Assembly: GCA_003162695.1 (NCBI GenBank) | Contig: PMML01000046.1 | Span: forward strand, 32,512-96,511 | Length of the DNA: 64,000 nucleotides | Source: Ignavibacteriota bacterium | GTDB lineage: Bacteria > Bacteroidota > Ignavibacteria > UBA10030 | Direction: 5' to 3' | Shown: one piece after another, positions 27,078-64,000 of the stretch | Layout: each line of letters begins with the position of its first letter | Position numbering within the stretch: the first letter of the stretch is position 1 | Notes under the pieces: model-generated | Databases searched by the model: none | Seen by the model: only the letters and a program-made list of their open reading frames with translations | Told to the model about the DNA's origin: nothing | Program-made: the position numbers and the translations under genes

Positions 27078-27094
27078 GAAAACGAGGAAAGAAT

Positions 27095-27796
27095 ATGCGC
27101 ACTACAATGGTTTGTCTTTTTCTTGCCGGTCTTTTTTTTCTGCCGGCACACAGCAAAGCTCAATCGAACACGCCTTCGGCGGCGGTACAACAGGATGTTC
27201 CTAATATCGACTTTCTATGGTCATTCGGAGCACTTATCGGAACCGATAAGAATTTGGTCAGCATAACCCATGATACCACGCTGAAAAGCGGCGAAGAAAT
27301 TAAAATGATGATACAGCTGAACAAAGAAAGTTTTGTCTATGTCGTGCATTATGATGCGCAGGGAGGTATCGATTTGTTGTTTCCTTACGAATTGGGTCAA
27401 TTCCAATCGGACGATTATATCCTTCAAAAAAATTACTATATCCGAAAAGGACGCACATGGATGGCATTGGATAAGAATCCTGGAAAAGAAGTGTTTTTCA
27501 TTATTGCGTCGACAGGACGGCAGCTGGATCTTGAACGGAAAATCAGCGAATGCCTTACCGCAACCGATGATGCGAAAAAGCAGACTCTGGCAGATAATGT
27601 TGTTGCCGAGATAAGGAATTTGCGGAAACAGTACACGTCATTCGCTGCTTTTGCAGAGAAACCGATCCCAATCGGAGGTAATATCCGCGATATCAAAAAT
27701 GCTCAGGAAACGCGGAGGATAGATGTTGCCGATCTTGCGATCGATATCATAGCAAAGAATTTTTACAGCAAGACGATTACCATTGACCATCAGTAA
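27095..27796 (+). CDS. Secreted DUF4384-like protein (caspase-associated)
   Basis: A signal peptide is present. The core LKSGEEIKMMIQLNKESFVYVVHYDAQGGIDLLFP fits the DUF4384 pattern (x-Y-x-Y-x...D..G.h.LLFP). The gene starts 18 nt after the caspase gene stop. Confidence 0.5.
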   Translation: MRTTMVCLFLAGLFFLPAHSKAQSNTPSAAVQQDVPNIDFLWSFGALIGTDKNLVSITHDTTLKSGEEIKMMIQLNKESFVYVVHYDAQGGIDLLFPYELGQFQSDDYILQKNYYIRKGRTWMALDKNPGKEVFFIIASTGRQLDLERKISECLTATDDAKKQTLADNVVAEIRNLRKQYTSFAAFAEKPIPIGGNIRDIKNAQETRRIDVADLAIDIIAKNFYSKTITIDHQ

Positions 27797-29738
27797 AACA
27801 CGAATGTGGAGGGACACGCTGATCATCAGCGTGTCCGCTCTTGCACTCGGGCACCTTTTCTTCTGGCTTCTTCCCGGAGTATTTCAAACCTGGAATGCGC
27901 ATGCGGTCGACCAGATGTTTGTGCTCCGCTCCCACTATTTTCCATCCCGTATTCCGTACGACAGCACAATCGTTCATGTGGATGAGACAGACAGCACGAA
28001 GCTGATGTTGACAACTTCCTACACGACGCGCAAACCGTATGCACAAATTGCCCGAAACCTCGGCGAGCTGAAAACAGCCGTGCAACTATGGGATTATGTT
28101 TTTCATTTCCCGCTTCCGGAAGAGGATTCTATATTTTTTGAAAGCAATAAACGCTCGGGGAACGCATATTTCGGAGTCGAGATTAATCTGAAAGATGAAC
28201 CGCCCAAAACAGTCGCTAAAAATCTTACGGCTGATGAAGAGTATTTGTCTAAAACAAAATGGCACGTTCATGTCGATGGAGATGCTTCTTCGCTGTATAT
28301 AGGCACAGATGCAATCAGTACCTTTGCGGCTTTTGCATCTTCTGCCCGAGGACTTGGATATGTAAACGTGCTCCCCGACAAGGATGGTGTCTTTCGCAAA
28401 GCGCCGTTGCTGGTGCGTTATGAAGACGGCTTTTATCCAAGTTTTCCTTTCCATGTCGTTTGTGACTATTTGCACGTTTCACCGGATCATATTATTCTTC
28501 GCCCCGGAACGAGCATTACGCTTCAGGGAGCGTACCGACCCGGCCAGGCACCGCACGATATCGTTATTCCGGTCGATGAACGCTGCAATTTGATCGTGAA
28601 TTTTGTCGGTCCATGGAATCGGATGCAGCATAATACAATGCTGCAAATTTATCATATCTCTGAAGATAGGGATGCTATGGAATTCGACTGGCAGCCGCGC
28701 TTCGAAGGAAAGATCGTTGTTGTTAACGAGACCTCGACCGGCGCATCGGACGTACAATCTGTGCCGACCGACAGCTGGTACCCGCTGGGAGGATTGCATG
28801 CGAATGTTATCAATACGATCCTTACGGAGAACTTTCTACATATAGTTGATCCGCGGCTCATGCTCGTTCTTGAACTTATACTTCTGGCTTTTATCGTTTT
28901 CTTTACGGTCCGGTTTTCCTCCCGCGGGCTGTGGTCCGGCGGATTGATCTTGATCATCGGATACGTCCTCTTTGCAATGACGGCATTTCTCTACGGAAAC
29001 CTGATTCTCAATATCATACGTCCCATTGGAATTTGTATTGTTGCCGTCTTCGGCGCACTCGCATACCGGTTTATAAACGAAGAGCGGGAAAAAGAATCGC
29101 TGCGTCAATCATTCGAATCCTATCTTCCGCCGTCGGTTGTCAAGCGTCAGCTTGCGCATCCGGAATCGGTGCTTGAAGTGCAGAAGAAGGAACTTACTAT
29201 TTTATTCAGCGATATTAAAAGTTTTACGACCTATTCATCGACGATGACGCCGGATCAGATACAGAAATTTTTGGCGGAATATTTTGAGGCGATGGTCGAT
29301 ATCGTCTTTCAATATGAAGGTACAGTCGATAAATATATCGGAGACGGGCTTATGGTTTTTTTCGGAGCTCCGGAACCGCAGCCCGATCATGCGGTGCGCT
29401 GTGTCCGTGCGGCGATCGATATGCAGAAAAAATGCCGCGAGCTGAAAGAGAAATGGGTCAAAGAGGGATTGTTCCCGCTGCGCATTCGTATCGGTGTCAA
29501 TACAGGGGAAGTCGTCGTCGGCAACATGGGCACGCCAAAAAAGCTTTCGTATACCGTGCTGGGCTCCGATGTCAATCTCGCCAACCGCTTGGAATCCAAT
29601 GCGCCGGTTGAAGGTATTATGATTTCCCGGCGGACCTACGACCTGATCAAGGATCAGATCCCTGCATTGCCGCACGAAAAAATTCTTGTCAAAGGACTCG
29701 ACACGCCGATCGAAGTGTACACCATTCCGGTAGAGTAA
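27783..29738 (+). CDS. CHASE2 sensor domain-containing class III adenylate/guanylate cyclase
   Basis: An N-terminal TM precedes a roughly 330-aa periplasmic CHASE2-like region and then 3 TM helices. The C-terminal CYC domain is FSDIKSFT...KYIGDGLMVFFGAP...NLANRLE. An alternative ATG at 27804 lies just after the upstream stop. Confidence 0.8.
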   Translation: MTISKTRMWRDTLIISVSALALGHLFFWLLPGVFQTWNAHAVDQMFVLRSHYFPSRIPYDSTIVHVDETDSTKLMLTTSYTTRKPYAQIARNLGELKTAVQLWDYVFHFPLPEEDSIFFESNKRSGNAYFGVEINLKDEPPKTVAKNLTADEEYLSKTKWHVHVDGDASSLYIGTDAISTFAAFASSARGLGYVNVLPDKDGVFRKAPLLVRYEDGFYPSFPFHVVCDYLHVSPDHIILRPGTSITLQGAYRPGQAPHDIVIPVDERCNLIVNFVGPWNRMQHNTMLQIYHISEDRDAMEFDWQPRFEGKIVVVNETSTGASDVQSVPTDSWYPLGGLHANVINTILTENFLHIVDPRLMLVLELILLAFIVFFTVRFSSRGLWSGGLILIIGYVLFAMTAFLYGNLILNIIRPIGICIVAVFGALAYRFINEEREKESLRQSFESYLPPSVVKRQLAHPESVLEVQKKELTILFSDIKSFTTYSSTMTPDQIQKFLAEYFEAMVDIVFQYEGTVDKYIGDGLMVFFGAPEPQPDHAVRCVRAAIDMQKKCRELKEKWVKEGLFPLRIRIGVNTGEVVVGNMGTPKKLSYTVLGSDVNLANRLESNAPVEGIMISRRTYDLIKDQIPALPHEKILVKGLDTPIEVYTIPVE

Positions 29739-53644: not shown

Positions 53645-53875
53645 ATGATCCATGGAACCATTGTTGTTGCCAAGGATATTTGTAAAGCGTGTGAACTTTG
53701 TATCACTGCCTGTCCGCAGGAATGTCTCGAACTTTCGCCGCATCTCAATGAAAAAGGATACCGCTACGCTCAATTAAAGAACGATACCTGCACCGGATGC
53801 ATCAATTGTGCAATTGTCTGTCCTGACAGCGCTATCACGGTCTATCGGGAATCAAAAAAAAAGAACGCATCTTAA
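53645..53875 (+). CDS. 2-oxoacid:ferredoxin oxidoreductase delta subunit (2x[4Fe-4S] ferredoxin)
   Basis: Two CxxCxxCxxxCP motifs are present (CKACELCITACP; CTGCINCAIVCP). The protein is 76 aa. Confidence 0.85.
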   Translation: MIHGTIVVAKDICKACELCITACPQECLELSPHLNEKGYRYAQLKNDTCTGCINCAIVCPDSAITVYRESKKKNAS

Positions 53876-53895
53876 TTGCACGAAAACAAGAAAGT

Positions 53896-54984
53896 ATGGA
53901 TATGGCGATAGAAAACGGAAAAGAAATGAGACTGATGAAAGGGAACGAAGCGCTTGCCGAAGCGGCTTTTCGTGCAGGTATGAAAGCCTACTTCGGTTAT
54001 CCCATCACACCGCAGTCGGAAATTTTGGAATATCTGGCTTTCCATGCCCCGGAGCATCCGGATGTGGTTGTCTTACAAGCAGAAAGCGAGCTTGCCGCAA
54101 TTAATATGGTCTATGGTGCATCCGGTGCCGGCGCCCGCGTCATGACTTCTTCTTCAAGTCCCGGGATCAGTCTTATGCAGGAGGGATTGTCATATATGAC
54201 CTCAGCGCATTTGCCGGCATTGATCGTCAATGTACAGCGCGGAGGGCCGGGTCTCGGCACTATCCAGCCGTCCCAGAGCGATTATTTCCAGGCGGTCAAA
54301 GGCGGGGGACATGGAGATTATCATTTACTCGTTCTTGCACCTGCTTCAGTGCAGGAAATGGTCGATTTCGTTTTTGAAGGATTCCGTTTATCGGAAAAAT
54401 ACCGCAATCCGGTTATGATTCTTGCCGATGGCGCACTAGGACAGATGATGGAAAAGGTGGTTCTTCCGCCGGCCGGCACGCTCCCGAAAGCCGACGTGTC
54501 ATGGGCCTCGACCGGCAAACCTGCTGCGCGCGAGCGCAACATTATCACGTCGCTTTTTATTCAGCCGGAAAAAATGGAAATGATCAATCTTGGGCTGCAG
54601 GAAAAATATAAAAAGATGGAAAGCGAGATTCGGTACGAACTGATCGAATGCAATGATGCGGAAATCGTTCTTGTTGCGTTCGGATTGACTGCACGGATTT
54701 GTCAAAAAGTCATCGAATTAGGACGCGAAAAAGGCATAAAAATAGGTTTGGTCCGGCCGATTACACTTTTTCCGTTCCCCTATGACATTCTCAATCGTAT
54801 GGCGGATTCCGTCGAAGCGTTCCTTGCGGTCGAAATGAATGCCGGACAAATGCTGGAAGATGTACGACTCGCTGTCAACGGAAAGAAGCCGGTGCATTTT
54901 TATGGACGGACCGGCGGAATGATTCCGTCGCCGGAAGAAGTGCTTCGCAAAGTCGGCGCAATTATCGAACGCGTTCTCGTATAA
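53896..54984 (+). CDS. 2-oxoacid:ferredoxin oxidoreductase alpha subunit (Kor/Por/Vor A)
   Basis: The sequence EAAFRAGMKAYFGYPITPQSEILEYLA is characteristic of the alpha subunit. The protein is 362 aa. Confidence 0.9.
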   Translation: MDMAIENGKEMRLMKGNEALAEAAFRAGMKAYFGYPITPQSEILEYLAFHAPEHPDVVVLQAESELAAINMVYGASGAGARVMTSSSSPGISLMQEGLSYMTSAHLPALIVNVQRGGPGLGTIQPSQSDYFQAVKGGGHGDYHLLVLAPASVQEMVDFVFEGFRLSEKYRNPVMILADGALGQMMEKVVLPPAGTLPKADVSWASTGKPAARERNIITSLFIQPEKMEMINLGLQEKYKKMESEIRYELIECNDAEIVLVAFGLTARICQKVIELGREKGIKIGLVRPITLFPFPYDILNRMADSVEAFLAVEMNAGQMLEDVRLAVNGKKPVHFYGRTGGMIPSPEEVLRKVGAIIERVLV

Positions 54985-54992
54985 GGTGCAAT

Positions 54993-55757
54993 ATGGAAAA
55001 TGTCGTGACAAAAAATGAAATGGAAATAGTTTATAAAAAACCGAAGACAATCACCGATACTCCGATGCATTATTGTCCCGGCTGCGGGCATGGTGTCGTC
55101 CATAAGATCTTGATGGAAGTGATCGACGAACTCGGTATTCAGGACCAAACGATCGGTATCGCACCTGTCGGCTGCGCTGTCTTTGCATACGATTATATGA
55201 ATATCGATATGCAGGAAGCTGCGCACGGCCGCGCAAGCGCGGTTGCAACAGGAGTCAGACGAGTACTGCCTGATAAATATGTGTTCTCGTATCAGGGGGA
55301 CGGCGATCTGGCGGCTATTGGAACCGGAGAAACAATCCATACCGTGAACCGCGGTGAAAATATTTTGATGCTGTTTATTAACAACGGTATATACGGTATG
55401 ACCGGCGGGCAGATGGCTCCGACATCTCTCATCGGTATGAAGACCACGACATCGCCGTACGGCCGCGATGCTGCACAGGTGGGAAATCCGATAAAAATTA
55501 CGGAGCTTATCGCACAGCTTCCCGGCGCGTACTATGTAACGCGTCAGGCGGTACACACGACGCAGGCGGTTCGCAAATTAAAAAAAGCAATAGAAACGTC
55601 GTTCAAGTATCAAAAAGAAAAAAAGGGGACATGCTTTATTGAGGTCGTTTCCAATTGCCCGTCCGGATGGAAAATGACGCCTGTGGAAGCAAACGTGTGG
55701 CTGGAAAAAAATATGTTTCCGGTGTACCCGCTGGGCGATATAAAAAGTCCGAAATAA
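54993..55757 (+). CDS. 2-oxoacid:ferredoxin oxidoreductase beta subunit (TPP-binding)
   Basis: The sequences YCPGCGHG and the TPP-binding GDGD are present. The protein is 254 aa. Confidence 0.9.
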   Translation: MENVVTKNEMEIVYKKPKTITDTPMHYCPGCGHGVVHKILMEVIDELGIQDQTIGIAPVGCAVFAYDYMNIDMQEAAHGRASAVATGVRRVLPDKYVFSYQGDGDLAAIGTGETIHTVNRGENILMLFINNGIYGMTGGQMAPTSLIGMKTTTSPYGRDAAQVGNPIKITELIAQLPGAYYVTRQAVHTTQAVRKLKKAIETSFKYQKEKKGTCFIEVVSNCPSGWKMTPVEANVWLEKNMFPVYPLGDIKSPK

Positions 55758-55786
55758 TGTCTTGAAACAAGGAAAGCGATCAGATC

Positions 55787-56356
55787 ATGAAACAGTCACA
55801 TGAAATTATCATTGCAGGATTCGGCGGGCAGGGTGTCCTTTCCATGGGACAGATCATTGCTTATGCGGCAATGAAAGAAAATAAGGAAGTAAGCTGGATG
55901 CCTTCTTACGGACCGGAGATGCGCGGGGGAACGGCAAATTGCGTCGTAATCGTTTCCGAGAAACGCATCAGCTCTCCTATTGTAACAATGTTCGATACTG
56001 CGATAATTTTAAATCAGCCGTCGCTTGACAAATTTGAAAGTACGGTCTGTCCCGGAGGTCTTTTAATTTTTGAAAAATCGACAATTATTAATCCGCCCAA
56101 AAGAAACGATATTGAAATCATCGCTCTGCCGGGACTTGAAATTGCACAGGAATTGACGAGCAAACAGGTAGCTAATATGGTTTTGCTCGGCGCTTTTTTA
56201 GAACGCAGACCGATTGTGAAACCGGAAAATGTAGTGAGTGCTCTGAAAAGTGTTTTGCCGGCTCACCGTCAGTACTTGATTCCGATCAACGAGCAGGCGT
56301 TGAAAAGAGGGAAAGAACTTGTCATGGAAAGCGCCGGCGAACCGGTCGCAAAATAA
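55787..56356 (+). CDS. 2-oxoacid:ferredoxin oxidoreductase gamma subunit
   Basis: The sequence IIIAGFGGQGVLSMGQIIAYAAM is typical of the gamma subunit. The protein is 189 aa. Confidence 0.85.
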   Translation: MKQSHEIIIAGFGGQGVLSMGQIIAYAAMKENKEVSWMPSYGPEMRGGTANCVVIVSEKRISSPIVTMFDTAIILNQPSLDKFESTVCPGGLLIFEKSTIINPPKRNDIEIIALPGLEIAQELTSKQVANMVLLGAFLERRPIVKPENVVSALKSVLPAHRQYLIPINEQALKRGKELVMESAGEPVAK

Positions 56357-56386
56357 ATTCTTCGTAGTTATGCGGGATCGAAAGCC

Positions 56387-56653
56387 ATGGAAAATAAAAA
56401 ATTTGAATGCATTTATGCCTGCCGCAATACATGCAGTATGCTGGATGAAGCAATGCGGGATGAGACTGCGATGATGAGATTCTATGAACGGATGATAAAT
56501 GAATGTACATATCCAGATGTTCAGGCATTTATTCGTGAAATATTAGAAGAGCGCAGCAGCATGATACTCCGCATCGTACAAAAACTCAATGAATTAAAGG
56601 TTCGCGGACAAACAATAGAGGATGTTCGTTCGAGTTTTAACCCCGTTGCCTAA
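56387..56653 (+). CDS. Hypothetical small Cys-containing protein
   Basis: 88-aa ORF immediately downstream of the oxidoreductase operon. It carries CIYACRNTC and a fourth Cys. No family was recognised. Confidence 0.35.
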   Translation: MENKKFECIYACRNTCSMLDEAMRDETAMMRFYERMINECTYPDVQAFIREILEERSSMILRIVQKLNELKVRGQTIEDVRSSFNPVA

Positions 56654-57014
56654 CCTGTCCTTTTTTAACCATATTCCAAGATATGAACAGTATTTTTCAC
56701 ACTTCTACTATGCCTTGGAAAGTATTCTTTCTTGCGATGTTCTGTTGCATAAAATCTATGCCAAAAGGGAACATGAAAGTTGCCGAGTAATTCTAAAAAA
56801 ATCGCTGTTTTAAGCTGATATTAAGGCGTTTCTATAAATAACATCCAAGTTTTCCGGTGCTTGCGGGATTTTGGCCATGAATCAAGACCGGATAATTTAC
56901 CGGTGAAAATCTATTCTTATCCTCTATTTGCTTTTGGCGGGATTATTTCACAACATCTCGCCATAGAATATCTCCCAATGGTAACATGAGCATTTTGAAT
57001 GAAGAGGAACGTTT

Positions 57015-58160
57015 ATGAATATCGGCGTTATGAAAGAACGGTTTCCGCAGGAACGGCGCGTATCACTTACTCCGGGCGGAGTCAAAACGCTTGCCGGATT
57101 CGGCGCGACGGTTTACGTCGAACGAAATGCCGGAGCACAAAGCTACTTTACTGATCAAGAATATCAGGAAGCGGGCGCTGCAATTGTTTACAGTCCGGAA
57201 GAACTTATTATGCGTTCGGATGTGGTCTCGAAAATTGCTCCTCCGACACTGGATGAACTCTCCATGCTGCGGGAAGGACAGACTCTTTTTGCAGCGTACC
57301 ATCTTGCAATCTCAAAAAAACAGATCATCGAAAAACTCTTGGAAAAAAAAGTGACTGCCATCGCACATGAGTTGATCGAAAACGCACAGGGGGAATTGCC
57401 GGTTGTACAGACGATGGCGGAAATTGCAGGACAGCTTTCCATTCAAGTTGCCGCACATTTTCTCCAGACCCGGCACGGCGGCCGCGGTGTTCTGCTCGGC
57501 AGTATTCCCGGAGTTCCAGCGGCCAATGTTGTTATTCTCGGCGCTGGAACGGTCGGAAGAACTGCAGCCCGTGTAGCGCTCGGCCTCGGCGCGCGGGTAT
57601 CGGTGATCGATAGAAATATTGTCCATTTGCGTGAATTGGAAAATCTTTTTCAGTGGAGAATTTCTACTGCGCTGGGTGATGCCTATACGATCGAGCAGAC
57701 GGTGCGAGATGCAGATGTCGTAATCGGCGCCGTTTTATTGAAAGGAGAAAAAACACCGCACCTGGTAACGGAGGAAATGATCAAGCAGATGAATCCCGGA
57801 TCCGTAATTGTCGATGTTTCCATCGATAATGGCGGGTGCGTTGAAACCAGCCGGCCGACAACATTGCTTGACCCGACATTTATTGTTCACCATGTCGTGC
57901 ATTACTGTGTGCCCAATATGGCAGCCTCTGTGCCGCGGACCGCAACAGTCGGTTGGTCGAATGTCCTGCTGCCGCTGCTGCATGAAGCATCGGATCTCGG
58001 CATGGATGAAGTGCTGCGCATCGACGCAGGGCTGGCAAAAGGCGTTTGTACGTATAACGGTTTTTGCACAAACAAAACAGCGGCAAAAATATTTGAGATG
58101 CCCTTTGTGGATCTCAATACGCTTCTGACAAATTCACTGCATACAAGAGAGAACGTATGA
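57015..58160 (+). CDS. Alanine dehydrogenase/PNT-family NAD(H)-dependent dehydrogenase
   Basis: The N-terminus is MNIGVMKERFPQERRVSLTPGGV. The Rossmann motif is VVILGAGTVGRTAA. The protein is 381 aa and has no C-terminal TM, so a transhydrogenase alpha subunit is unlikely. Confidence 0.8.
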   Translation: MNIGVMKERFPQERRVSLTPGGVKTLAGFGATVYVERNAGAQSYFTDQEYQEAGAAIVYSPEELIMRSDVVSKIAPPTLDELSMLREGQTLFAAYHLAISKKQIIEKLLEKKVTAIAHELIENAQGELPVVQTMAEIAGQLSIQVAAHFLQTRHGGRGVLLGSIPGVPAANVVILGAGTVGRTAARVALGLGARVSVIDRNIVHLRELENLFQWRISTALGDAYTIEQTVRDADVVIGAVLLKGEKTPHLVTEEMIKQMNPGSVIVDVSIDNGGCVETSRPTTLLDPTFIVHHVVHYCVPNMAASVPRTATVGWSNVLLPLLHEASDLGMDEVLRIDAGLAKGVCTYNGFCTNKTAAKIFEMPFVDLNTLLTNSLHTRENV

Positions 58161-59455
58161 GCTGGATCGATCAGTATAAGTCGAAAATTGTTCCGCTGGA
58201 AGATGCTGTCAGCGTTGTGAAATCCGGAGACCGTATTTTTTCGAGCGCCAATGCGGCAACGCCTCTCCTCACGATGAACGCGCTGGCAAAACGTGCGAAC
58301 GAATTAACGAATGTCGAAATCAACCATCTTCTCCTGATGGGTGAAGATCCTCTGACCAAGCCGGGGATGGAAAATCATTTCCATCATAATTCGCTGTTTG
58401 TAGGTCCGGGAGACCGCCCGTCGATTGCAGAAGGAGTTTCGGATTACGTTCCTGTTCATCTTTCGGATGTACCGGGATTGTTCCGGGCCGGTTATATTTC
58501 CCTGGATGCTGCGTTTATCCATGTTTCCCCTCCTGATGCGCACGGTTTTATGAGCCTGGGAGTTGAATGCGCTTCGACAAAAGCAGCGGCCGAAACGGCA
58601 AAAATCGTTGTCGCCCAGGTCAACGAACGCATGCCTCGTACTCTGGGGGATGTCTTTGTTCATATTTCACGGGTTCATAAAATAGTCGAGTGTTCGGAAC
58701 CGCTTCTGGAACTTAAACCCGGGATTGCGAACGAAATAGAGGAGCGAATTGCAGATTTTATAGCACCTATGATTGAAGACGGCTCGACGCTGCAATTGGG
58801 GATCGGCGGAATCCCGGACGCGGTTCTTGGCCGCATCGAAGGGAAGCAGCATCTCGGTATACATACGGAGATGATTTCCGACGGGGTTATGAAGGCGGTC
58901 GAAAGCGGGATTATCACGAGTTTGAATAAAACGCTGCATCCGGGCAAGGTTGTTACCACATTTGTTATGGGGTCTCAGAATCTGTACGACTATGTCAATA
59001 ATAATCCGCTCTTCGAAGTCCATCCATGCGATTATACCAACAATCCGTTTATCATCGCGCAAAATGAAAAGATGGTTGCAATCAATTCTTCGATCGAAGT
59101 CGATATCAGCGGTCAGGTATGTTCCGATTCGATCGGCACAAAAATTTACAGCGGCTTCGGCGGTCAGGTCGATTTCATACGAGGAGCGGCTTATTCAAAA
59201 GGGGGAAAACCGATTATTGCGCTTCCATCAACAACAAAGAACGGCGAATTCTCGAAGATTGTCCCGCGCCTGAGAACCGGTGCAGGTGTTGTCACGACCC
59301 GCGCTGATGTGCACTATGTCGTTACCGAATATGGGGTCGCATCGCTTCATGGAAAAAATATACACCAGAGGGCCGAGGCACTTATTGCAATAGCACATCC
59401 TAAATTTCGTGCGGAACTGGAAAATTATCTTAGAACTATGCACAGGGCGGTCTAG
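58157..59455 (+). CDS. Acetyl-CoA hydrolase/transferase family protein (succinyl-CoA:acetate / 4-hydroxybutyrate CoA-transferase-like)
   Basis: 432 aa. The N-terminal YKSKIVPLEDAVSVVKSGDRIF and the central GIGGIPDAVL are typical of the AcCoA_hydro family. An ATGA overlap with the upstream gene is present. Confidence 0.85.
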   Translation: MSWIDQYKSKIVPLEDAVSVVKSGDRIFSSANAATPLLTMNALAKRANELTNVEINHLLLMGEDPLTKPGMENHFHHNSLFVGPGDRPSIAEGVSDYVPVHLSDVPGLFRAGYISLDAAFIHVSPPDAHGFMSLGVECASTKAAAETAKIVVAQVNERMPRTLGDVFVHISRVHKIVECSEPLLELKPGIANEIEERIADFIAPMIEDGSTLQLGIGGIPDAVLGRIEGKQHLGIHTEMISDGVMKAVESGIITSLNKTLHPGKVVTTFVMGSQNLYDYVNNNPLFEVHPCDYTNNPFIIAQNEKMVAINSSIEVDISGQVCSDSIGTKIYSGFGGQVDFIRGAAYSKGGKPIIALPSTTKNGEFSKIVPRLRTGAGVVTTRADVHYVVTEYGVASLHGKNIHQRAEALIAIAHPKFRAELENYLRTMHRAV

Positions 59456-59779
59456 AGACAGACACGAGTACTCGTAAAATTGAAGATCGAAGCTGCGAAT
59501 CTGTCATAGAACGATGTCCGAATTCCTGCGAAATAGGTTTTTCATGCTCATTTCTCATTCAATCAATGATTGGATAATTGGCTTATTGGGCAATAATCCT
59601 GAAAATAGAAAAATTTTCTAAAATTTAAGATATATACTTGCATTAATTAACAATATTGTTTGTTAGCGACCAATATTTCAACATTTTATAGACTTTTTAT
59701 GTGGCACAGCTCTTGTCCTGACAAAATATAAAAAGTGAATTTATCGACCGGAGGAAGGTTTTTCCCTTTAACGTTTGAA

Positions 59780-61993
59780 ATGAAGAGTCGAATTCTCTCA
59801 GTTTTTTCCTTCATGATGTTCGTTGTATCGTATGCAGCAATAGGGCAAACGATAGATGAATGTTTGATGTGTCACGGGGACACATCCCTGACGATGGATC
59901 GCAATGGAAAAAATATTTCCATTTATGCGGATCTCTCCGTTTTACATCGATCTGCGCATTTAAAGTTAGTTTGCGTCGCCTGTCATACGGGTTTTGATCC
60001 CCAGAATGTTCCGCATAAAGAAAAAATCACTCCTGTGAATTGTCTTCAATGTCACGGCGATGCACCGGCAAAACATCCGTTTCATGCTGCAGCGATGAAG
60101 AATGCGGCAAGTCCGTCTTTGCTTCTTGTTCAGTGTAAGCAATGCCACGGCACGCATGCTGTTGCGGCAGTCAGGAATAAGAATGCAGCTCTTCAAAGCA
60201 GGAATATTATTGAGATCTGCGGTACATGTCACACAGCGGAAAAAGAGCGGTATTTAATTTCCGTTCATGGAAAAGCAGAGTCTGGGGGAGTTGCTGCTGC
60301 TCCCAATTGCGTCTCATGCCATCAGAATAAAATCACAGGTTCGGCGGGGAGCAGGGATTTGGTTTCGATAAAAATTGCACAGGAAAAAATATGCTTATCC
60401 TGCCACCTCGATAATCCCGATGTTCGTTCGCATATCGGCATTTCTACGGGATTCATAGCTGCATACGAAAAAAGCGTACACGGATCGGCTTTACTGAAAG
60501 GAAACGCGTCTGCTGCCAATTGCGTCGATTGCCACGGCAGCCATTTGATTCAGCGAAGCGATGCTGCATCATCATCAATCAACCGGAACAATATTCCTAC
60601 AACGTGCGAAAAATGTCATGCCGGCATCAAACGTGAATACGACGAAAGTATTCATGCAAAATCCGCTGCCGCCGGGAATAAGGATGCGCCGGTTTGTACG
60701 AATTGTCACGGCGAGCACAATATTCTCGCACCGTCCAATCCGGACTCGCGTGTTTCCGCTCAAAATGTTTCTCAGCAGGTTTGTTCACCCTGCCATAGTT
60801 CGGTTCTTCTTTCAGAAAAATACGGTATTGCCAGCGACAGGTTCAGAACCTATTCTTCGAGTTATCATGGATTGGCCGTCCGCGCCGGTAATGTCGCGGT
60901 TGCAAATTGTGCAAGCTGCCACGGGGCACATAACATCAAACCGTCATCCGATTCGACATCATCCGTCAATAAAGCGAATCTTGTGAAGACATGCGGCAAG
61001 TGCCATCCCGGCGCCAATGACCGCTTTACGATCGGTTCCATCCATGTTACATCAGCACAAAAAGAAGAACCCCTCATCTATTGGGTTTCATTGTTTTATG
61101 TGACAATGATCGCTTCCGTTATCGGCGGTATGTTTCTTCACAATCTTTTGGACTTTTACCGCAAATCGAAGCGGCAATTACTGATCCGGCGCGGATTAGA
61201 ATCAGAGGAACACTTCGGACATGCATTGTATGTAAGGATGACGTTCAGTGAGCGGGTGCAGCATGCAGCATTGATGGTCAGTTTCTTTACGCTTGTTTTT
61301 ACGGGATTTATGCTTCGGTATCCTGATGCGTTCTGGGTTGTTTTTCTTCGCAGCTTAAGCGAAAACGTTTTTATGCTGCGCGGTTTGATTCACCGCTGCG
61401 CAGCAGTTGTCATGATCTCGGCTTCTTTGTATCATTGTTATTATATTCTCTTCACAAAACGCGGCAGGCAGCTCATACGGGATCTCCTTCCCGTCCTGCA
61501 GGATTTTACCGATGCGGGGGATATTCTAAAATATAATCTCGGATTTTCAAAAAGAAAGCCGAAACTGGGGCGGTTCAGTTATATCGAGAAGAGCGAATAT
61601 TGGGCGCTCGTATGGGGCGTCGTGGTCATGGGAATAACGGGAATCATTCTATGGTTTGATAATACTTTTATGGGGTTGCTGACAAAACTTGGCTGGGATA
61701 TTGCCCGCATTGTACATTTCTATGAAGCATGGCTCGCTTTTCTGGCAATTCTTATCTGGCATGTTTATTATGTCATTTTTAATCCCGATATCTATCCGAT
61801 GAATCTTGCCTGGATCAAAGGCACAATTACAGAAATGGAAATGGGCGAAGAACATCTGCGGGAATTGGAACAGTTGAAGCGACAGAAACTTTTCGATGAA
61901 GCAACGGTTGTTCTCGATATTGATGTTGAAAAGGAGAATCAGAATGATACAGATACTAAGGACTCCAATAAATTGCCGGGACCGGGATCATGA
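59780..61993 (+). CDS. Fusion protein: periplasmic 13-heme c-type cytochrome + C-terminal dihaem cytochrome b (HydC/FdnI-like) membrane domain (CbcL-like)
   Basis: The signal peptide is MKSRILSVFSFMMFVVSYAAIGQ. There are 13 CxxCH motifs. The C-terminal 5 TM helices carry conserved His residues. The longer ORF begins with GTG at 59735. Confidence 0.8.
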   Translation: MKSRILSVFSFMMFVVSYAAIGQTIDECLMCHGDTSLTMDRNGKNISIYADLSVLHRSAHLKLVCVACHTGFDPQNVPHKEKITPVNCLQCHGDAPAKHPFHAAAMKNAASPSLLLVQCKQCHGTHAVAAVRNKNAALQSRNIIEICGTCHTAEKERYLISVHGKAESGGVAAAPNCVSCHQNKITGSAGSRDLVSIKIAQEKICLSCHLDNPDVRSHIGISTGFIAAYEKSVHGSALLKGNASAANCVDCHGSHLIQRSDAASSSINRNNIPTTCEKCHAGIKREYDESIHAKSAAAGNKDAPVCTNCHGEHNILAPSNPDSRVSAQNVSQQVCSPCHSSVLLSEKYGIASDRFRTYSSSYHGLAVRAGNVAVANCASCHGAHNIKPSSDSTSSVNKANLVKTCGKCHPGANDRFTIGSIHVTSAQKEEPLIYWVSLFYVTMIASVIGGMFLHNLLDFYRKSKRQLLIRRGLESEEHFGHALYVRMTFSERVQHAALMVSFFTLVFTGFMLRYPDAFWVVFLRSLSENVFMLRGLIHRCAAVVMISASLYHCYYILFTKRGRQLIRDLLPVLQDFTDAGDILKYNLGFSKRKPKLGRFSYIEKSEYWALVWGVVVMGITGIILWFDNTFMGLLTKLGWDIARIVHFYEAWLAFLAILIWHVYYVIFNPDIYPMNLAWIKGTITEMEMGEEHLRELEQLKRQKLFDEATVVLDIDVEKENQNDTDTKDSNKLPGPGS

Positions 61994-63483
61994 AAAAATT
62001 ATTTCCTAAAACGTTTTATAATATAACAAGTTTGTACGGCCTGTCTGTTGTTGCGATCAGTTTCGTACTATTCATATTTTTATCGATTCTCGATTTCTTT
62101 GCCACTGACCAAAAGCCGTATATGGGCATCATTACGTTCATTATTCTGCCGGCAATTTTGATCATCGGCTTGGCAATCGGTTTTTTGGGCGTATGGCGTG
62201 AGCATAAGCGAAAAAAACTTGGTTTGCCCGTCCACGAACAGCTGCCGCGCATCGATCTGAACGATCCGAAGCAGCAGCGCGTTGTGCTTTTTACCAGCAT
62301 CGGAACACTGGTGTTTTTATTTCTCACGGTTTTCGGAAGTTATAAAGCGTATGAATATACGGACTCCGATGCGTTTTGCGGGACCATGTGTCACAAAGTG
62401 ATGGATCCGGAATATACGGCATATCAAAGTTCGCCGCATGCGCGTGTCGGATGTGCCAAATGCCATATAGGACCCGGCGCCGGCTGGTATGTACGTTCGA
62501 AACTTTCAGGCGCGTATCAAGTATATGCGACGGTATTCAATAAATATCCGGAACCTATACCTACACCGATAGAAAACCTGCGTCCTGCTCAGGAAACATG
62601 TGAACAATGCCACTGGCCCAAACAATTTTTCAGCGAAAAACTGAAGAAGAACACCTATTTTTTGTCGGATGAAAAGAATACCCGGTGGACGCTGGATCTT
62701 CTTCTTAAAATAGGCGGTGGAAATATTGAAGCAGGTCCGGCATCCGGAATTCACTGGCACATGAATATTGCCAATGAATTGTCGTATATTGCAACCGATA
62801 CACAGCGTCAGGTTATTCCATGGATTAAATCCAAACGGGCAGACGGAAGTGTTGTGGTCTATCGCACTACTGAAAATTCGATCTCTGATTCAGCCGTCCA
62901 AATAATGAAGAAGCGGAGGATGGACTGTATTGATTGTCATAACCGTCCTACACATATTTACAACCCGCCGGCACGATCGGTCAACCATAGTATGGCGCTT
63001 GGCTGGATCGATCCGGCGCTTCCCGGTGTGAAAAGCGCGGCAGTGAAAGCGCTGGAAACATCGTACGCTACGAAGATGGAAGGATTAGAGGGAATTCGCC
63101 GGACTCTCGAAGATTATTATCAAACGAATTATCCGCAGATTGCTTCGACTAATAATGATACACTTGCACGCGCTATTAAGGAAGTTCAGCGGATCTTCGA
63201 CCATAATTATTTTCCTGAAATGAAGGTAAGCTGGAGGAAATTTCCCGACAATCTGGGTCACTTGTATTCACCCGGGTGTTTTCGATGTCACGACGGCAAA
63301 CATGTGGCGGAAGACGGGAAAATATTGTCTAGGGATTGCAACGTTTGCCACACCATTCTTGCACAGCAGTTTGAAAAAGAAGGATTACGATTATCGCTGG
63401 ATGGCATAGAATATCGGCACCCTGTGGATATCGGCACCGCATGGAAAGAAATGAATTGCAGCGATTGCCATAACGCTCAATAA
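61990..63483 (+). CDS. Membrane-anchored heptaheme c-type cytochrome, NapC/NirT/ImcH-like
   Basis: Two N-terminal TM helices are present. There are six CxxCH motifs plus one CGTMCH (CX3CH variant). An ATGA overlap with the upstream cytochrome gene is present. Confidence 0.8.
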   Translation: MKKLFPKTFYNITSLYGLSVVAISFVLFIFLSILDFFATDQKPYMGIITFIILPAILIIGLAIGFLGVWREHKRKKLGLPVHEQLPRIDLNDPKQQRVVLFTSIGTLVFLFLTVFGSYKAYEYTDSDAFCGTMCHKVMDPEYTAYQSSPHARVGCAKCHIGPGAGWYVRSKLSGAYQVYATVFNKYPEPIPTPIENLRPAQETCEQCHWPKQFFSEKLKKNTYFLSDEKNTRWTLDLLLKIGGGNIEAGPASGIHWHMNIANELSYIATDTQRQVIPWIKSKRADGSVVVYRTTENSISDSAVQIMKKRRMDCIDCHNRPTHIYNPPARSVNHSMALGWIDPALPGVKSAAVKALETSYATKMEGLEGIRRTLEDYYQTNYPQIASTNNDTLARAIKEVQRIFDHNYFPEMKVSWRKFPDNLGHLYSPGCFRCHDGKHVAEDGKILSRDCNVCHTILAQQFEKEGLRLSLDGIEYRHPVDIGTAWKEMNCSDCHNAQ

Positions 63484-63504
63484 CATACAGAGAAAAAGGG
63501 ATTT

Positions 63505-63960
63505 ATGAATCAAACACCAGAAACTCCGGCCGATCAGAGTAAAAGAGACTTTTTACAGATCGTCCTGGGCGGAGCGAGTGCGGCCTTTCTTGCTGCGGTT
63601 CTCTATCCGATCTTCGAATACCTTAAGCCGCCGAAGCAGGCTGAAGTGGAAGTCTCAAGCGTGAAAGCCGGAAAGCTGAGCGAGATCGAAAAAGACAGCG
63701 GGAAAATCATCAAGTTCGGCAGCAAGCCCGTCATTCTTATCCGTACGGCAAACGATGAACTCCGCGCGTTTTCGGCAACATGCACACATCTGGATTGTAC
63801 GGTTCAGTATCGTAAGGATTATGGTACCATCTGGTGTGCATGTCATAATGGAAAGTATGATTTAAACGGGCGTAATATTTCCGGTCCGCCGCCGCGGCCG
63901 CTGGAGGAATACAGGGTCGTTCTTCAAGGAGACGAAATACTTATTTCGAAAAAAGTATGA
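63505..63960 (+). CDS. Rieske [2Fe-2S] iron-sulfur protein with Tat signal
   Basis: A twin-arginine-like KRDFLQIVLGGASAAFLA precedes the Rieske boxes CTHLDC and CACHNG. Confidence 0.85.
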   Translation: MNQTPETPADQSKRDFLQIVLGGASAAFLAAVLYPIFEYLKPPKQAEVEVSSVKAGKLSEIEKDSGKIIKFGSKPVILIRTANDELRAFSATCTHLDCTVQYRKDYGTIWCACHNGKYDLNGRNISGPPPRPLEEYRVVLQGDEILISKKV

Positions 63961-64000
63961 AGACATTTCTTAAAAAAATGTACGACTGGGTTGACGAGCG
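63957..64000 (+). CDS. 5' end of a cytochrome b/b6-type gene (partial, runs off window)
   Basis: The ATG overlaps the Rieske stop (ATGA). The first 14 codons, MKTFLKKMYDWVDE, resemble the conserved cytochrome b6/b N-terminus (..VYDWFEERL..). Confidence 0.4.
   Translation, partial: MKTFLKKMYDWVDE

Follow-up and report, generated by a model that had tools for sequence, protein, structure and literature searches.

Three candidate menaquinol-oxidizing modules encoded beside a predicted outer-membrane conduit in an uncultured Ignavibacteria-class bacterium

The operon and its proposed role

The analyzed DNA (the window) is a stretch of 64,000 nucleotides from an Ignavibacteriota bacterium (assembly GCA_003162695.1, contig PMML01000046.1, positions 32,512 to 96,511). 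Judged from the encoded proteins, its last genes open the first operon of a respiratory gene cluster in an uncultured Ignavibacteria-class bacterium, and the window ends within this operon. The operon encodes three membrane modules of quinone-linked kinds: a CbcL-type protein with 13 c-type haems and a dihaem cytochrome b (g1), an ImcH-type heptahaem cytochrome (g2), and a Rieske/cytochrome b complex (g3 and g4) with an 11-haem membrane-anchored cytochrome (g5). With moderate confidence we infer, as regards both direction and function, that these modules are three parallel menaquinol oxidases that feed an extracellular electron-transfer conduit, candidate genes for which lie directly downstream.

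The window contains g1 to g3 and the beginning of g4 (Table 1). Stop and start codons overlap (ATGA) at g1/g2 and at g3/g4, and g2 and g3 are separated by a spacer of 21 nt; a preliminary description of this DNA, which saw overlaps between all four genes, was thus right about two of the three junctions. No other open reading frame (ORF) in the 64 kb is rich in CxxCH motifs, so that the abundance of haem motifs in g1 and g2 is far beyond chance. The cluster could be followed past the window end on metagenome contigs, of which L005 and L006 have 99.93-99.96% identity to the window across 10.5 kb and L001-L004 about 98%. This extension, proposed in the preliminary description, yielded the full cytochrome b gene, a multihaem replacement for cytochrome c1/f, and conduit genes. 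The g3 Rieske protein is found letter-for-letter on many metagenome contigs. The nearest GTDB species representative is a metagenome-assembled genome (MAG) named 'Ignavibacteriota bacterium', with 90% amino-acid identity for g2.

CbcL-like and ImcH-like cytochromes

Members of the CbcL/MtoC/MtrH family are defined by an N-terminal multihaem c domain with 3-23 CXXCH motifs and a C-terminal HydC/FdnI-like b domain with 5-6 transmembrane (TM) segments (Zacharoff 2016; Zhong & Shi 2018), and they are credited with passing electrons to low-potential acceptors outside the cell. Both domains are seen in g1. Its periplasmic domain (aa 28-409), behind a signal peptide, contains 13 CxxCH motifs, and a HydC/FdnI-type dihaem cytochrome b domain with five TM segments occupies aa ~435-660. 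The latter matches Pfam PF01292 (Ni_hydr_CYTB; 50.3 bits, cut-off 30.1) and TIGR01583 (8e-14), and at least 98% of 52 homologous ORFs retain its histidines 454, 495, 538, 552, 646, and 661. The number of CxxCH motifs in g1 homologues of related loci is 9, 11, 12, 13, or 18. A PDB sequence search with g1 gave marginal matches only. By these published family features g1 is CbcL-like, and both the motif count and the PF01292 match agree with the preliminary description of a CbcL-like protein in which 13 CxxCH motifs are fused to a b domain of the HydC/FdnI type.

The mechanical ORF of g1 opens at GTG 59735, and the likely start is ATG 59780, from which the signal peptide, MKSRILSVFSFMMFVVSYAAIG/QT, is a normal one. 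Four of the five other loci compared (L001, L009, L010, and L017) share the N-terminal motif Q-T-(I/V)-D-(D/E)-C-L-x-C-H, and the fifth, L008, has Q-T-R-E-D-C-L-T-C-H; this conservation supports both the ATG start and the thirteenth haem. Public gene calls on L001-L006 start g1 at an internal Met, giving 701-710 aa (on L005, position 6363 vs 6276, corresponding to window ~59867 vs 59780). Such a call drops the signal peptide and the first haem motif, leaving 12 haems instead of 13, and is an annotation artefact.

The second protein, g2, was compared with the published description of ImcH: three N-terminal TM segments, a CX3CH motif beside the last of them followed by six (range 5-9) CXXCH motifs, and homology to NapC/NirT/NrfH (Levar 2014; Zhong & Shi 2018). 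Published lengths are 495-519 aa in the Geobacter group, and published identities to Geobacter ImcH are 31.5-49% for other phyla. All three features of that description recur in g2, a protein of 497 aa. A hydropathy scan places TM segments at 20-38, 47-65, and 98-116; the first haem motif, C130-GTM-C134-H135, is of the CX3CH type and adjoins the third segment, and six CXXCH motifs follow. None of the seven varies in an alignment of 39 sequences with identities as low as 33%. The quinol-site region resembles NapC/NirT/NrfH, as seen in the matches to Pfam PF03264 (Cytochrom_NNT; 55.7 bits, cut-off 24.1, over aa 96-186) and to the NrfH model TIGR03153 (1e-16), and the NrfH structure 2j7a aligns with aa 91-213. 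The AlphaFold2 (AF2) model has helices at 12-37, 43-76, and 93-124 with a predicted local distance difference test score (pLDDT) of 65-84; its mean pLDDT is 53, with values below 50 in the haem regions, and the three TM helices alone are usable.

The haem-1 pocket of g2 was matched to that of ImcH from G. sulfurreducens by residue spacing. K171, Q177, and Y186 of g2 stand at +36, +42, and +51 from the haem-1 ligand H135, and K173, Q179, and Y188 of G. sulfurreducens ImcH are spaced likewise from H137, Q179 being the proposed distal ligand. Asp125 of g2 is the equivalent of ImcH E127. Judged by the published features and this spacing, g2 is a member of the ImcH family. The earlier label '2-TM heptaheme NapC/NirT/ImcH-like' was correct in the number of haems and in the NapC/ImcH type; the TM helices are three, and the seventh haem motif is CX3CH.

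Rieske protein, cytochrome b, and the multihaem third subunit

The g3 protein matches the Rieske family (Pfam PF00355; 51.4 bits, cut-off 20.3), shows a weak match to TM_PetC, and has a single TM anchor of the PetC type. Its cluster motifs C93-T-H95-L-D-C98 and C111-A-C113-H114-N-G-K-Y, conserved in 23 orthologues, provide the CxH...CxxH ligands and the two disulfide cysteines. Thus all three domain searches suggested at the outset (Ni_hydr_CYTB, Cytochrom_NNT, and Rieske) scored above the Pfam cut-offs. The name 'Tat-Rieske' given to g3 is justified in its second half; the Tat-like N-terminal motif S-K-R-D-F-L carries KR in the Ignavibacterial clade, and RR is found in homologues of other phyla. 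The second cluster box is CACHNG vs the canonical CPCHGS, with Gly in place of the usual Ser. In Rieske proteins the Ser-to-Gly exchange at this box fits a lower-potential, menaquinol-type centre, and the Gly of g3 suggests such a centre here.

The part of g4 inside the window, MKTFLKKMYDWVDE, is a b6-like N-terminus, and the preliminary description took it for the start of a cytochrome b. The complete gene on L005 (99.96% identical) encodes precisely that: a protein of 357 aa and about seven TM helices, of the fused b6 plus subunit-IV type, with matches to Pfam Cytochrome_B (2e-49) and Cytochrom_B_C (2.5e-9), to cytochrome b6 in the PDB (1e-61), and to full-length bacterial cytochromes b (1e-50). 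The haem ligands H91, H105, H192, and H207 and the Qo motif PEWY (279-282) are conserved in at least 95% of 23 orthologues. Tyr occupies the position of the haem-ci Cys, so that no Cys is available for haem ci.

Two more specific assignments of this complex were tried and rejected. The NCBIfam cytochrome b6 model scores 240.7 bits with g4 (cut-off 325) and the PetC model 67.8 bits with g3 (cut-off 250); together with the single 357-aa chain and the missing haem-ci Cys, these sub-threshold scores speak against a strict b6f complex. The second-best NCBIfam match of g4 is cytb_ExtP (205 bits, cut-off 290), memb_ExtQ scores 17.9 bits (cut-off 150), and no Ext model is found among the NCBIfam matches of g3 or g5. 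With ExtP and ExtQ scores under the equivalog cut-offs and a b subunit that is fused, not split, the complex is not an orthologue of the Ext cluster.

The third redox subunit of the complex is not a monohaem cytochrome c1/f. Its place is taken by g5 (L005 11523-12989), which overlaps g4 by ATGA and encodes a 488-aa protein that begins with a signal peptide, contains 11 CxxCH motifs, and has one TM helix, at the C-terminus. It matches c1/f in position and anchoring and is not a c1/f homologue. In every member of the g5 family the C-terminus is a TM helix with FRRxGL before it; the number of haems is 11 in Ignavibacteria and nine elsewhere. The nine common haems are accompanied across phyla by seven or eight invariant non-motif histidines, roughly one fewer than there are haems, and one invariant methionine (M243). 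That M243 provides one higher-potential haem with His/Met ligation is speculation.

The haem domains of g5 and g1 (for g1, window 59780-61060) share doubled-CXXCH repeats (CxxCHGxHxI), with a BLASTP E-value of 2e-25 and 26-30% identity. Because both domains are built of the same repeats, this similarity points to one kind of periplasmic 'wire' reused modularly on two different quinol-oxidizing membrane modules. Sequence searches of the PDB with g5 and with the downstream gene g7 gave nothing meaningful.

Candidate outer-membrane conduit genes downstream of the operon

On the near-identical contigs a second gene block begins 288 nt past g5. It contains, in this order, genes for a tetrahaem c554-like cytochrome, a 438-aa protein, a 14-haem cytochrome with a signal sequence, a 289-aa cytochrome, and a 413-aa cytochrome, followed by ccmF. 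The 289-aa cytochrome has five CxxCH motifs, one CX4CH, and one CX3CH, and the 413-aa cytochrome has five haems and an MtrC-type domain; both carry lipoboxes (LSLSC and LWGGC, respectively). The 438-aa protein ends in ...LNIF, and an aromatic C-terminus is common among outer-membrane beta-barrel proteins. The AF2 model of a homologue with 98% identity consists wholly of beta structure, in about 24-26 strands, at a mean pLDDT of 79.7. In Foldseek comparisons with the PDB the best folds for this model are the 24-strand usher pores PapC and FimD, and porins. Some of the barrel homologues carry the generic Pfam domains OMP_b-brl or Porin_4.

A large predicted barrel beside a periplasmic multihaem cytochrome and lipoprotein multihaem cytochromes is the layout of a porin-cytochrome (Pcc) system, and on the strength of the model we regard the block as a predicted outer-membrane gene set of the porin-cytochrome type. 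Its position directly downstream of the operon lends support to the earlier suggestion that the arrangement serves respiration of extracellular acceptors. Porin-cytochrome clusters have been reported in Ignavibacteria before (PMC7399161).

Conservation of gene linkage across genomes

Gene linkage was studied in two surveys. In the first, centred on ImcH, a family profile was run against one genome per GTDB species, the best 80 of at least 597 loci were taken with 10-kb flanks, and their six-frame ORFs were searched with the window proteins. Of these loci, 43 extend at least 8 kb to either side; among them, a CbcL-type b domain is present in 36, Rieske plus cytochrome b in 15, and the full triad of Rieske protein, cytochrome b, and multihaem cytochrome in 13; cbcL precedes imcH in 32 of the 43, in several phyla. 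If L denotes cbcL, I imcH, R the Rieske gene, B cytochrome b, and M the multihaem cytochrome, the order in the clade of the window is LIRBM. This order is found in all nine GTDB loci of the Ignavibacteriota type whose imcH-like product is at least 59% identical to g2 (L009-L015, L017, and L021), and also in L007 and, with inserted genes, in L008. The triad is followed by the c554, barrel, and 14-haem cytochrome genes in the eight of these GTDB loci that are long enough (L015 ends before) and in L007.

In other lineages the triad lies within 10 kb of imcH in different arrangements: LRBMI in KSB1, RBMLI and RBMI in Acidobacteriota (among them Pyrinomonadaceae and a Chloracidobacterium MAG), IMRBL in Verrucomicrobiia, and also in Calditrichota and in Zixibacteria RBG-1. 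Thus the triad adjoins imcH/cbcL in at least six phyla, with varying gene order. The pair cbcL-imcH stands without the triad in an I. album MAG and in most Acidobacteriaceae loci. The I. album MAG agrees with the published statement that the type strain has no Rieske/cytochrome b complex; an earlier analysis found in Ignavibacteria only a different cytochrome b, of the GPWY type. No Rieske or cytochrome b gene was seen within about 10 kb downstream of imcH in the Melioribacter-labelled locus L082.

The second survey was centred on the triad and used a profile of the g5 family against metagenome contigs of the Joint Genome Institute (JGI). Where 3 kb or more of upstream sequence is available, Rieske and cytochrome b genes directly precede the multihaem gene in 35 of 36 loci; of the 11 loci that extend at least 8 kb to either side, eight contain imcH and/or cbcL as well. 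These counts make the triad a three-gene unit that is essentially obligate and often, not always, found with cbcL-imcH. Even in L155, a locus with the triad only, its surroundings consist of 8- to 10-haem cytochromes, a module of NrfD-c7 and ferredoxin, and genes for a histidine kinase and a sigma-54 response regulator.

In orthologous loci, then, the multihaem genes keep their link to Rieske/cytochrome b: the linkage is conserved in Ignavibacteriota and recurs elsewhere, in line with the association drawn in the preliminary description. Its characterization of the module as 'unusual' was overstated, since a single search reaches more than 8000 clusters of the ImcH-like family at 90% identity, of which many bear the label Ignavibacteria or Bacteroidota, and comparable gene clusters exist in Geobacter (ext) and Zixibacteria RBG-1. 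At 50% identity, with E at most 1e-30, the family forms 802 clusters, and no Geobacter name was found among the ten representatives of such clusters that were looked up.

Further arrangements were noted in the surveyed loci. A cbcL-like gene lies directly 5' of the imcH-like gene in L034-L072 (Acidobacteriota and others) and in L016, L019, L020, L023, L028-L030, L032, and L052 (Ignavibacteriota-type or unclassified MAGs); the pair may be an ancestral or a functional unit. The cluster is more elaborate in L008 (331-21491), from another Ignavibacteria MAG. Besides a CbcL-like gene and imcH it has a second CbcL whose c and b parts are encoded by separate genes, and a multihaem-ferredoxin-NrfD module; then come the triad, further cytochromes, and a molybdopterin oxidoreductase gene, and upstream lies a gene for a 970-aa multihaem protein with a Por secretion tail. 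Two adjacent genes for unusually long proteins (221-270 aa) with a glycine-cleavage H (lipoyl-type) domain are present in L007 (5453-6999, minus strand) and L155 (13849-15362). Such paired H-domain genes recur beside cytochrome clusters of unrelated genomes with a histidine kinase and a sigma-54 response regulator.

Candidate promoter and regulation

Transcription of the operon is probably sigma-54 dependent, from a candidate -24/-12 element 5' of g1 (Table 1). This near-consensus element is the only match to TGGCAC-N5-TTGY in the 64-kb window, 0.27 matches being expected. Elements of the same type stand before the cbcL-like ATG in other loci, at a distance of 69-73 nt in L009 and L008 and of 143-153 nt in L010 and L017. 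Similar -24/-12 elements precede the barrel gene in L012 and L027, and in L019 the site lies just inside the barrel ORF. Genes for sigma-54 activators occur within 10 kb in 19 of 168 related loci, and none was found in the window. In Geobacter, the cbcBA genes are under the control of BccR, and we draw a parallel between this system and the candidate element. A scan of the cluster for sigma-70 promoters and intrinsic terminators gave counts not above the shuffled expectation; the consensus patterns used are not the type expected in this lineage.

Table 1. Genes and candidate promoter elements of the cluster (window coordinates for the first five rows, locus coordinates for the others)
Feature	Position	Strand	Description
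g1	59780..61993	+	CbcL/MtoC/MtrH-family fusion (predicted), 737 aa
g2	61990..63483	+	ImcH-family inner-membrane heptahaem cytochrome (predicted), 497 aa
g3	63505..63960	+	Rieske [2Fe-2S] subunit, 151 aa
g4	63957..64000, runs off window end	+	cytochrome b, first 14 codons
Candidate sigma-54 (-24/-12) promoter element TGGCACAGCTCTTGT	59702..59716	+	63 nt 5' of g1 start codon
Sigma-54-type element, L009	7697-7711		TGGCAC-N5-TTG[CT]
Sigma-54-type element, L008	4723-4737		TGGCAC-N5-TTG[CT]
Sigma-54-type element, L010	4640-4654		TGGCAC-N5-TTG[CT]
Sigma-54-type element, L017	4719-4733		TGGCAC-N5-TTG[CT]

Proposed electron routes and alternative explanations

A natural explanation of the gene set is that the modules would act as alternative menaquinol oxidases in parallel and not as subunits of one machine, because cbcL-imcH and the triad each occur alone. 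All three would pass electrons to periplasmic multihaem cytochromes, and the porin-cytochrome conduit would carry them over the outer membrane to Fe(III), Mn(IV), humics, electrodes, or partner cells. NrfH-type proteins oxidize quinol at the periplasmic face, FdnI/HydC-type dihaem cytochromes b span the membrane, and Rieske/cytochrome b complexes run a Q cycle. Because these parent-family mechanisms differ, the modules should differ in the charge moved per electron and in acceptor potential. Oxidation of the NrfH/ImcH type at the periplasmic face would be electroneutral; an FdnI-type dihaem b run in the quinol-oxidizing direction would consume membrane potential and suit low-potential acceptors; and the Q cycle of Rieske/cytochrome b would conserve energy and require a high-potential acceptor. 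The operon might then provide graded exits from the quinone pool, with the Q-cycle enzyme added at the high-potential end and the whole set hard-wired to the conduit.

Such a gradation is known from Geobacter, whose imcH, cbcL, and cbcBA genes are unlinked: ImcH operates at potentials higher than about -0.1 V, CbcL around -0.15 V, and CbcBA at those lower than -0.21 V, and the growth yield changes accordingly. The yield falls when CbcL or CbcBA is used, and purified ImcH behaved as electroneutral. The roles of ImcH and CbcL in Geobacter and the presence of homologues in Ignavibacteriae have been described previously (PMC4251993; PMC6295460; bioRxiv 10.1101/2023.05.03.539133 and 10.1101/2021.04.15.440034).

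Several points weigh against this explanation. The functional assignments derive from homology and gene context, and the co-transcription of g1-g5 from gene overlaps and short spacers. The ImcH-centred sample is biased towards relatives of the query. In the Pfam and NCBIfam searches the 438-aa barrel protein gave no match, to MtrB or to any other family. The main weakness is thermodynamic: it is questionable whether a Q cycle can run forward into a haem wire. Rieske centres of the menaquinol type typically have potentials of about +100 to +150 mV, and bis-His haems are usually much more negative. Since electron transfer from the Rieske centre to low-potential haems would be uphill, either some of the g5 haems have a high potential, or only strong oxidants are used, or the complex runs in reverse. 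Finally, a cluster homologous to ours, RBM-imcH of Zixibacteria RBG-1 (L084), was considered more likely to serve Fe(II) oxidation (Castelle et al., 2013, PMC3903129).

The last two points lead to the alternative that survives best, inward electron flow, which we regard as unlikely. Electrons from extracellular Fe(II), a cathode, or partner cells would enter via the conduit, and the Rieske/cytochrome b complex would be reversed by the proton-motive force; in a variant, or in addition, the CbcL-like and ImcH-like proteins would act as quinone reductases filling the menaquinone pool, and the system could be bidirectional. Similar proposals have reportedly been made for the petI bc1 complex of Acidithiobacillus ferrooxidans and for MtoC/CymA of Fe(II) oxidizers. 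The mismatch between the Rieske centre and low-potential haems would be smaller in reverse, and the CbcL/MtoC/MtrH family is represented in Fe(III) reducers and Fe(II) oxidizers alike, with no separating sequence feature. However, the argument made for RBG-1 was based on the absence of extracellular cytochromes, whereas in our cluster two lipoprotein multihaem cytochromes follow the barrel gene. Moreover, ImcH has so far been implicated in quinol oxidation only, the cultured Ignavibacteria with ImcH homologues are Fe(III) reducers, and the genes directly upstream of the operon are of a heterotroph type, no CO2-fixation genes being seen. These observations favour outward flow.

Less probable still is a role of the Rieske/cytochrome b/multihaem complex in the reduction of soluble acceptors in the periplasm (nitrite, N-oxides, or oxygen, for example), with c-type cytochromes as the link to an oxidase or reductase; its neighbours would then reflect shared regulation or haem maturation and no common pathway. 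We give this possibility little credence. It would suit the usual need of Rieske/cytochrome b complexes for high-potential acceptors, and there is a precedent in Caldithrix abyssi, where a Rieske/cytochrome b pair in a nap-eHao cluster was proposed to feed nitrate/nitrite reduction via multihaem cytochromes; the molybdopterin oxidoreductase gene at the end of the L008 cluster could be read in the same way. But in the lineage of the window (L001-L007 and L009) the flanking 10 kb or so on each side contain no gene for a terminal reductase or oxidase, the triad still lies among 8- to 10-haem cytochromes when imcH and cbcL are missing, and barrel-cytochrome genes directly follow it in the eight sufficiently long GTDB loci of the Ignavibacteriota type and in L007. 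A single inner-membrane supercomplex of the g1-g5 products, in which the multihaem domains of g1 and g2 would form the electron exit of the Rieske/cytochrome b core, is in our view very improbable: the tight packing with overlapping stop and start codons, the order conserved in Ignavibacteriota, and the repeats shared by g1 and g5 would fit it, but both gene sets are independent in many genomes, their order and distance vary (LIRBM, RBMLI, LRBMI, IMRBL, and the insertions in L008), g5 has its own c1-like C-terminal anchor, and ImcH and CbcL of Geobacter act as stand-alone proteins.

Parallel menaquinol oxidases with outward flow thus remain our preferred explanation. A broader generalization, which we offer as a possibility and with considerable doubt, is that the triad represents a distinct cross-phylum class of Q-cycle menaquinol:multihaem-cytochrome oxidoreductases for extracellular transfer, and that in Ignavibacteria it forms a three-gear set with two co-transcribed exits, an electroneutral one (ImcH-type) and one that consumes membrane potential (CbcL-type). 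If so, mineral respiration would have an energy-conserving quinol oxidase, with energy conservation matched to the potential of the acceptor, and the triad with its FRRxGL-anchored multihaem subunit would be a gene marker for high-potential metal respiration in uncultured phyla.

Comparison with known systems

Likeness of g1 and g2 to the Geobacter proteins was judged by the published descriptions of the latter. Geobacter CbcL (GSU0274) and g1 both join a periplasmic multihaem domain to a HydC/FdnI-type dihaem b, with nine haems in the former and 13 in the latter. Geobacter ImcH (GSU3259) and g2 agree in the three TM segments, the CX3CH motif beside the third of them, the six CXXCH motifs, and the K/Q/Y spacing. 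As in Geobacter, several alternative quinol oxidases would coexist, and the promoter is likely of the sigma-54 type, as it is for cbcBA. However, imcH of Geobacter is monocistronic, imcH and cbcL are expressed constitutively, and by their locus tags they lie at separate sites, whereas here the two genes are adjacent and form one putative operon with Rieske/cytochrome b. Unlike the Geobacter genes, the Ignavibacterial operon adjoins genes for an outer-membrane conduit.

The Geobacter cluster extHIJKLMNOPQS encodes a Rieske protein (ExtO), cytochrome b (ExtP/ExtQ), 12- and 10-haem cytochromes (ExtM/ExtN), a porin-like protein (ExtI), and a lipoprotein cytochrome (ExtS). As in our cluster, a Rieske protein and a b6-type cytochrome b are combined with large multihaem cytochromes and a porin-like protein, and a monohaem cytochrome of the c1/f type is missing. 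The differences are that cytochrome b is split into ExtP and ExtQ in Geobacter and fused into one 357-aa protein here, that our cluster contains neither a rhodanese nor a selenoprotein cytochrome, and that imcH-like and cbcL-like genes, absent from the ext operon, belong to the operon described here.

A further published precedent is the 'Mtr pathway' cluster with PetAB of the above-mentioned Zixibacteria RBG-1 (L084; Castelle et al., 2013, PMC3903129). Its authors described genes for a cytochrome b/Rieske complex beside those for multihaem cytochromes of the periplasm and inner membrane and for a conduit through the outer membrane. This cluster contains a homologous Rieske protein, cytochrome b, and 9-haem anchored cytochrome, followed by an imcH-like gene; the cbcL-like gene lies on the opposite strand, and the order differs from that of the window. 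The RBG-1 conduit is of the MtrAB type, no extracellular cytochromes were reported, and Fe(II) oxidation was favoured. The ImcH and CbcL families had not yet been named at that time, and these genes went unrecognized.

With the Rieske/cytochrome b complexes of the b6f/Chlorobi type and those of anammox bacteria, which have multihaem subunits, our complex shares the CxH...CxxH boxes, the four b-haem histidines, the PEWY motif, the b6-like N-terminus, and the subunit-IV-like C-terminus, and in those complexes, too, c1/f is replaced by other c-type cytochromes. It differs from them in having no haem-ci Cys, a fused b6/subunit IV, a CACHNG box, and a 9- to 11-haem third subunit built of doubled-CXXCH repeats. 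Its genomic partners are cytochromes of the metal-respiration type, and not photosystems or hydrazine metabolism.

All parts of the system belong to known families, and homologues of ImcH and CbcL have already been reported in Ignavibacteriae. An imcH-cbcL-Rieske/cytochrome b operon is not described in the literature searched, from which subscription journals were mostly missing, so that its absence there is not proof. In the same literature we found no description of the cross-phylum triad of Rieske protein, cytochrome b, and 9- to 11-haem cytochrome as a unit, of its recurrent coupling to cbcL-imcH, or of both gene sets joined in one operon of uncultured Ignavibacteria.

The locus bears on how metal-respiring bacteria couple inner-membrane quinol oxidation to energy conservation. 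Because a putative Q-cycle enzyme with a multihaem 'wire' as its output shares an operon with ImcH-like and CbcL-like genes beside a conduit, the locus is a testable candidate for an energy-conserving route. The survey data also characterize the cbcL-imcH pair as a widespread unit outside the relatives of Geobacter, and add uncultured Ignavibacteria with a Rieske/cytochrome b complex to a class whose I. album type strain was reported to lack one. The triad could serve as a genomic mark of extracellular respiration in Acidobacteriota, Calditrichota, KSB1, Zixibacteria, and Verrucomicrobiota.

Other features of the window

The genes upstream of the operon (window 53645-59455, plus strand) encode a four-subunit 2-oxoacid:ferredoxin oxidoreductase, an alanine dehydrogenase/PNT-type protein, and an acetyl-CoA hydrolase/CoA-transferase. 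The family of the last protein includes the acetate-activation enzyme of Geobacter. This neighbourhood is kept only within the same species (L001-L006) and differs in L007 and L008. A mobile element or horizontally acquired island was considered and rejected, as the GC content of the region (0.45-0.46) equals the window average and the flanks contain ordinary chromosomal genes. An Rfam scan of 59300-64000 gave a single match, sub-threshold and at chance level.

More distant parts of the window contain two further features. At 24666-29738 (plus strand), a gene for an 803-aa fusion of a WD40 beta-propeller with a caspase-family domain (Peptidase_C14) is followed by a 233-aa ORF (27095..27796), which separates it from a gene for a 651-aa CHASE2-adenylate/guanylate cyclase. 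Between about 40000 and 54000 the GC content drops to 0.38-0.42, vs 0.45-0.50 elsewhere; this stretch coincides with minus-strand genes of the polysaccharide-biosynthesis type (Polysacc_synt, YfhO-like) and may be a variable surface-polysaccharide locus.

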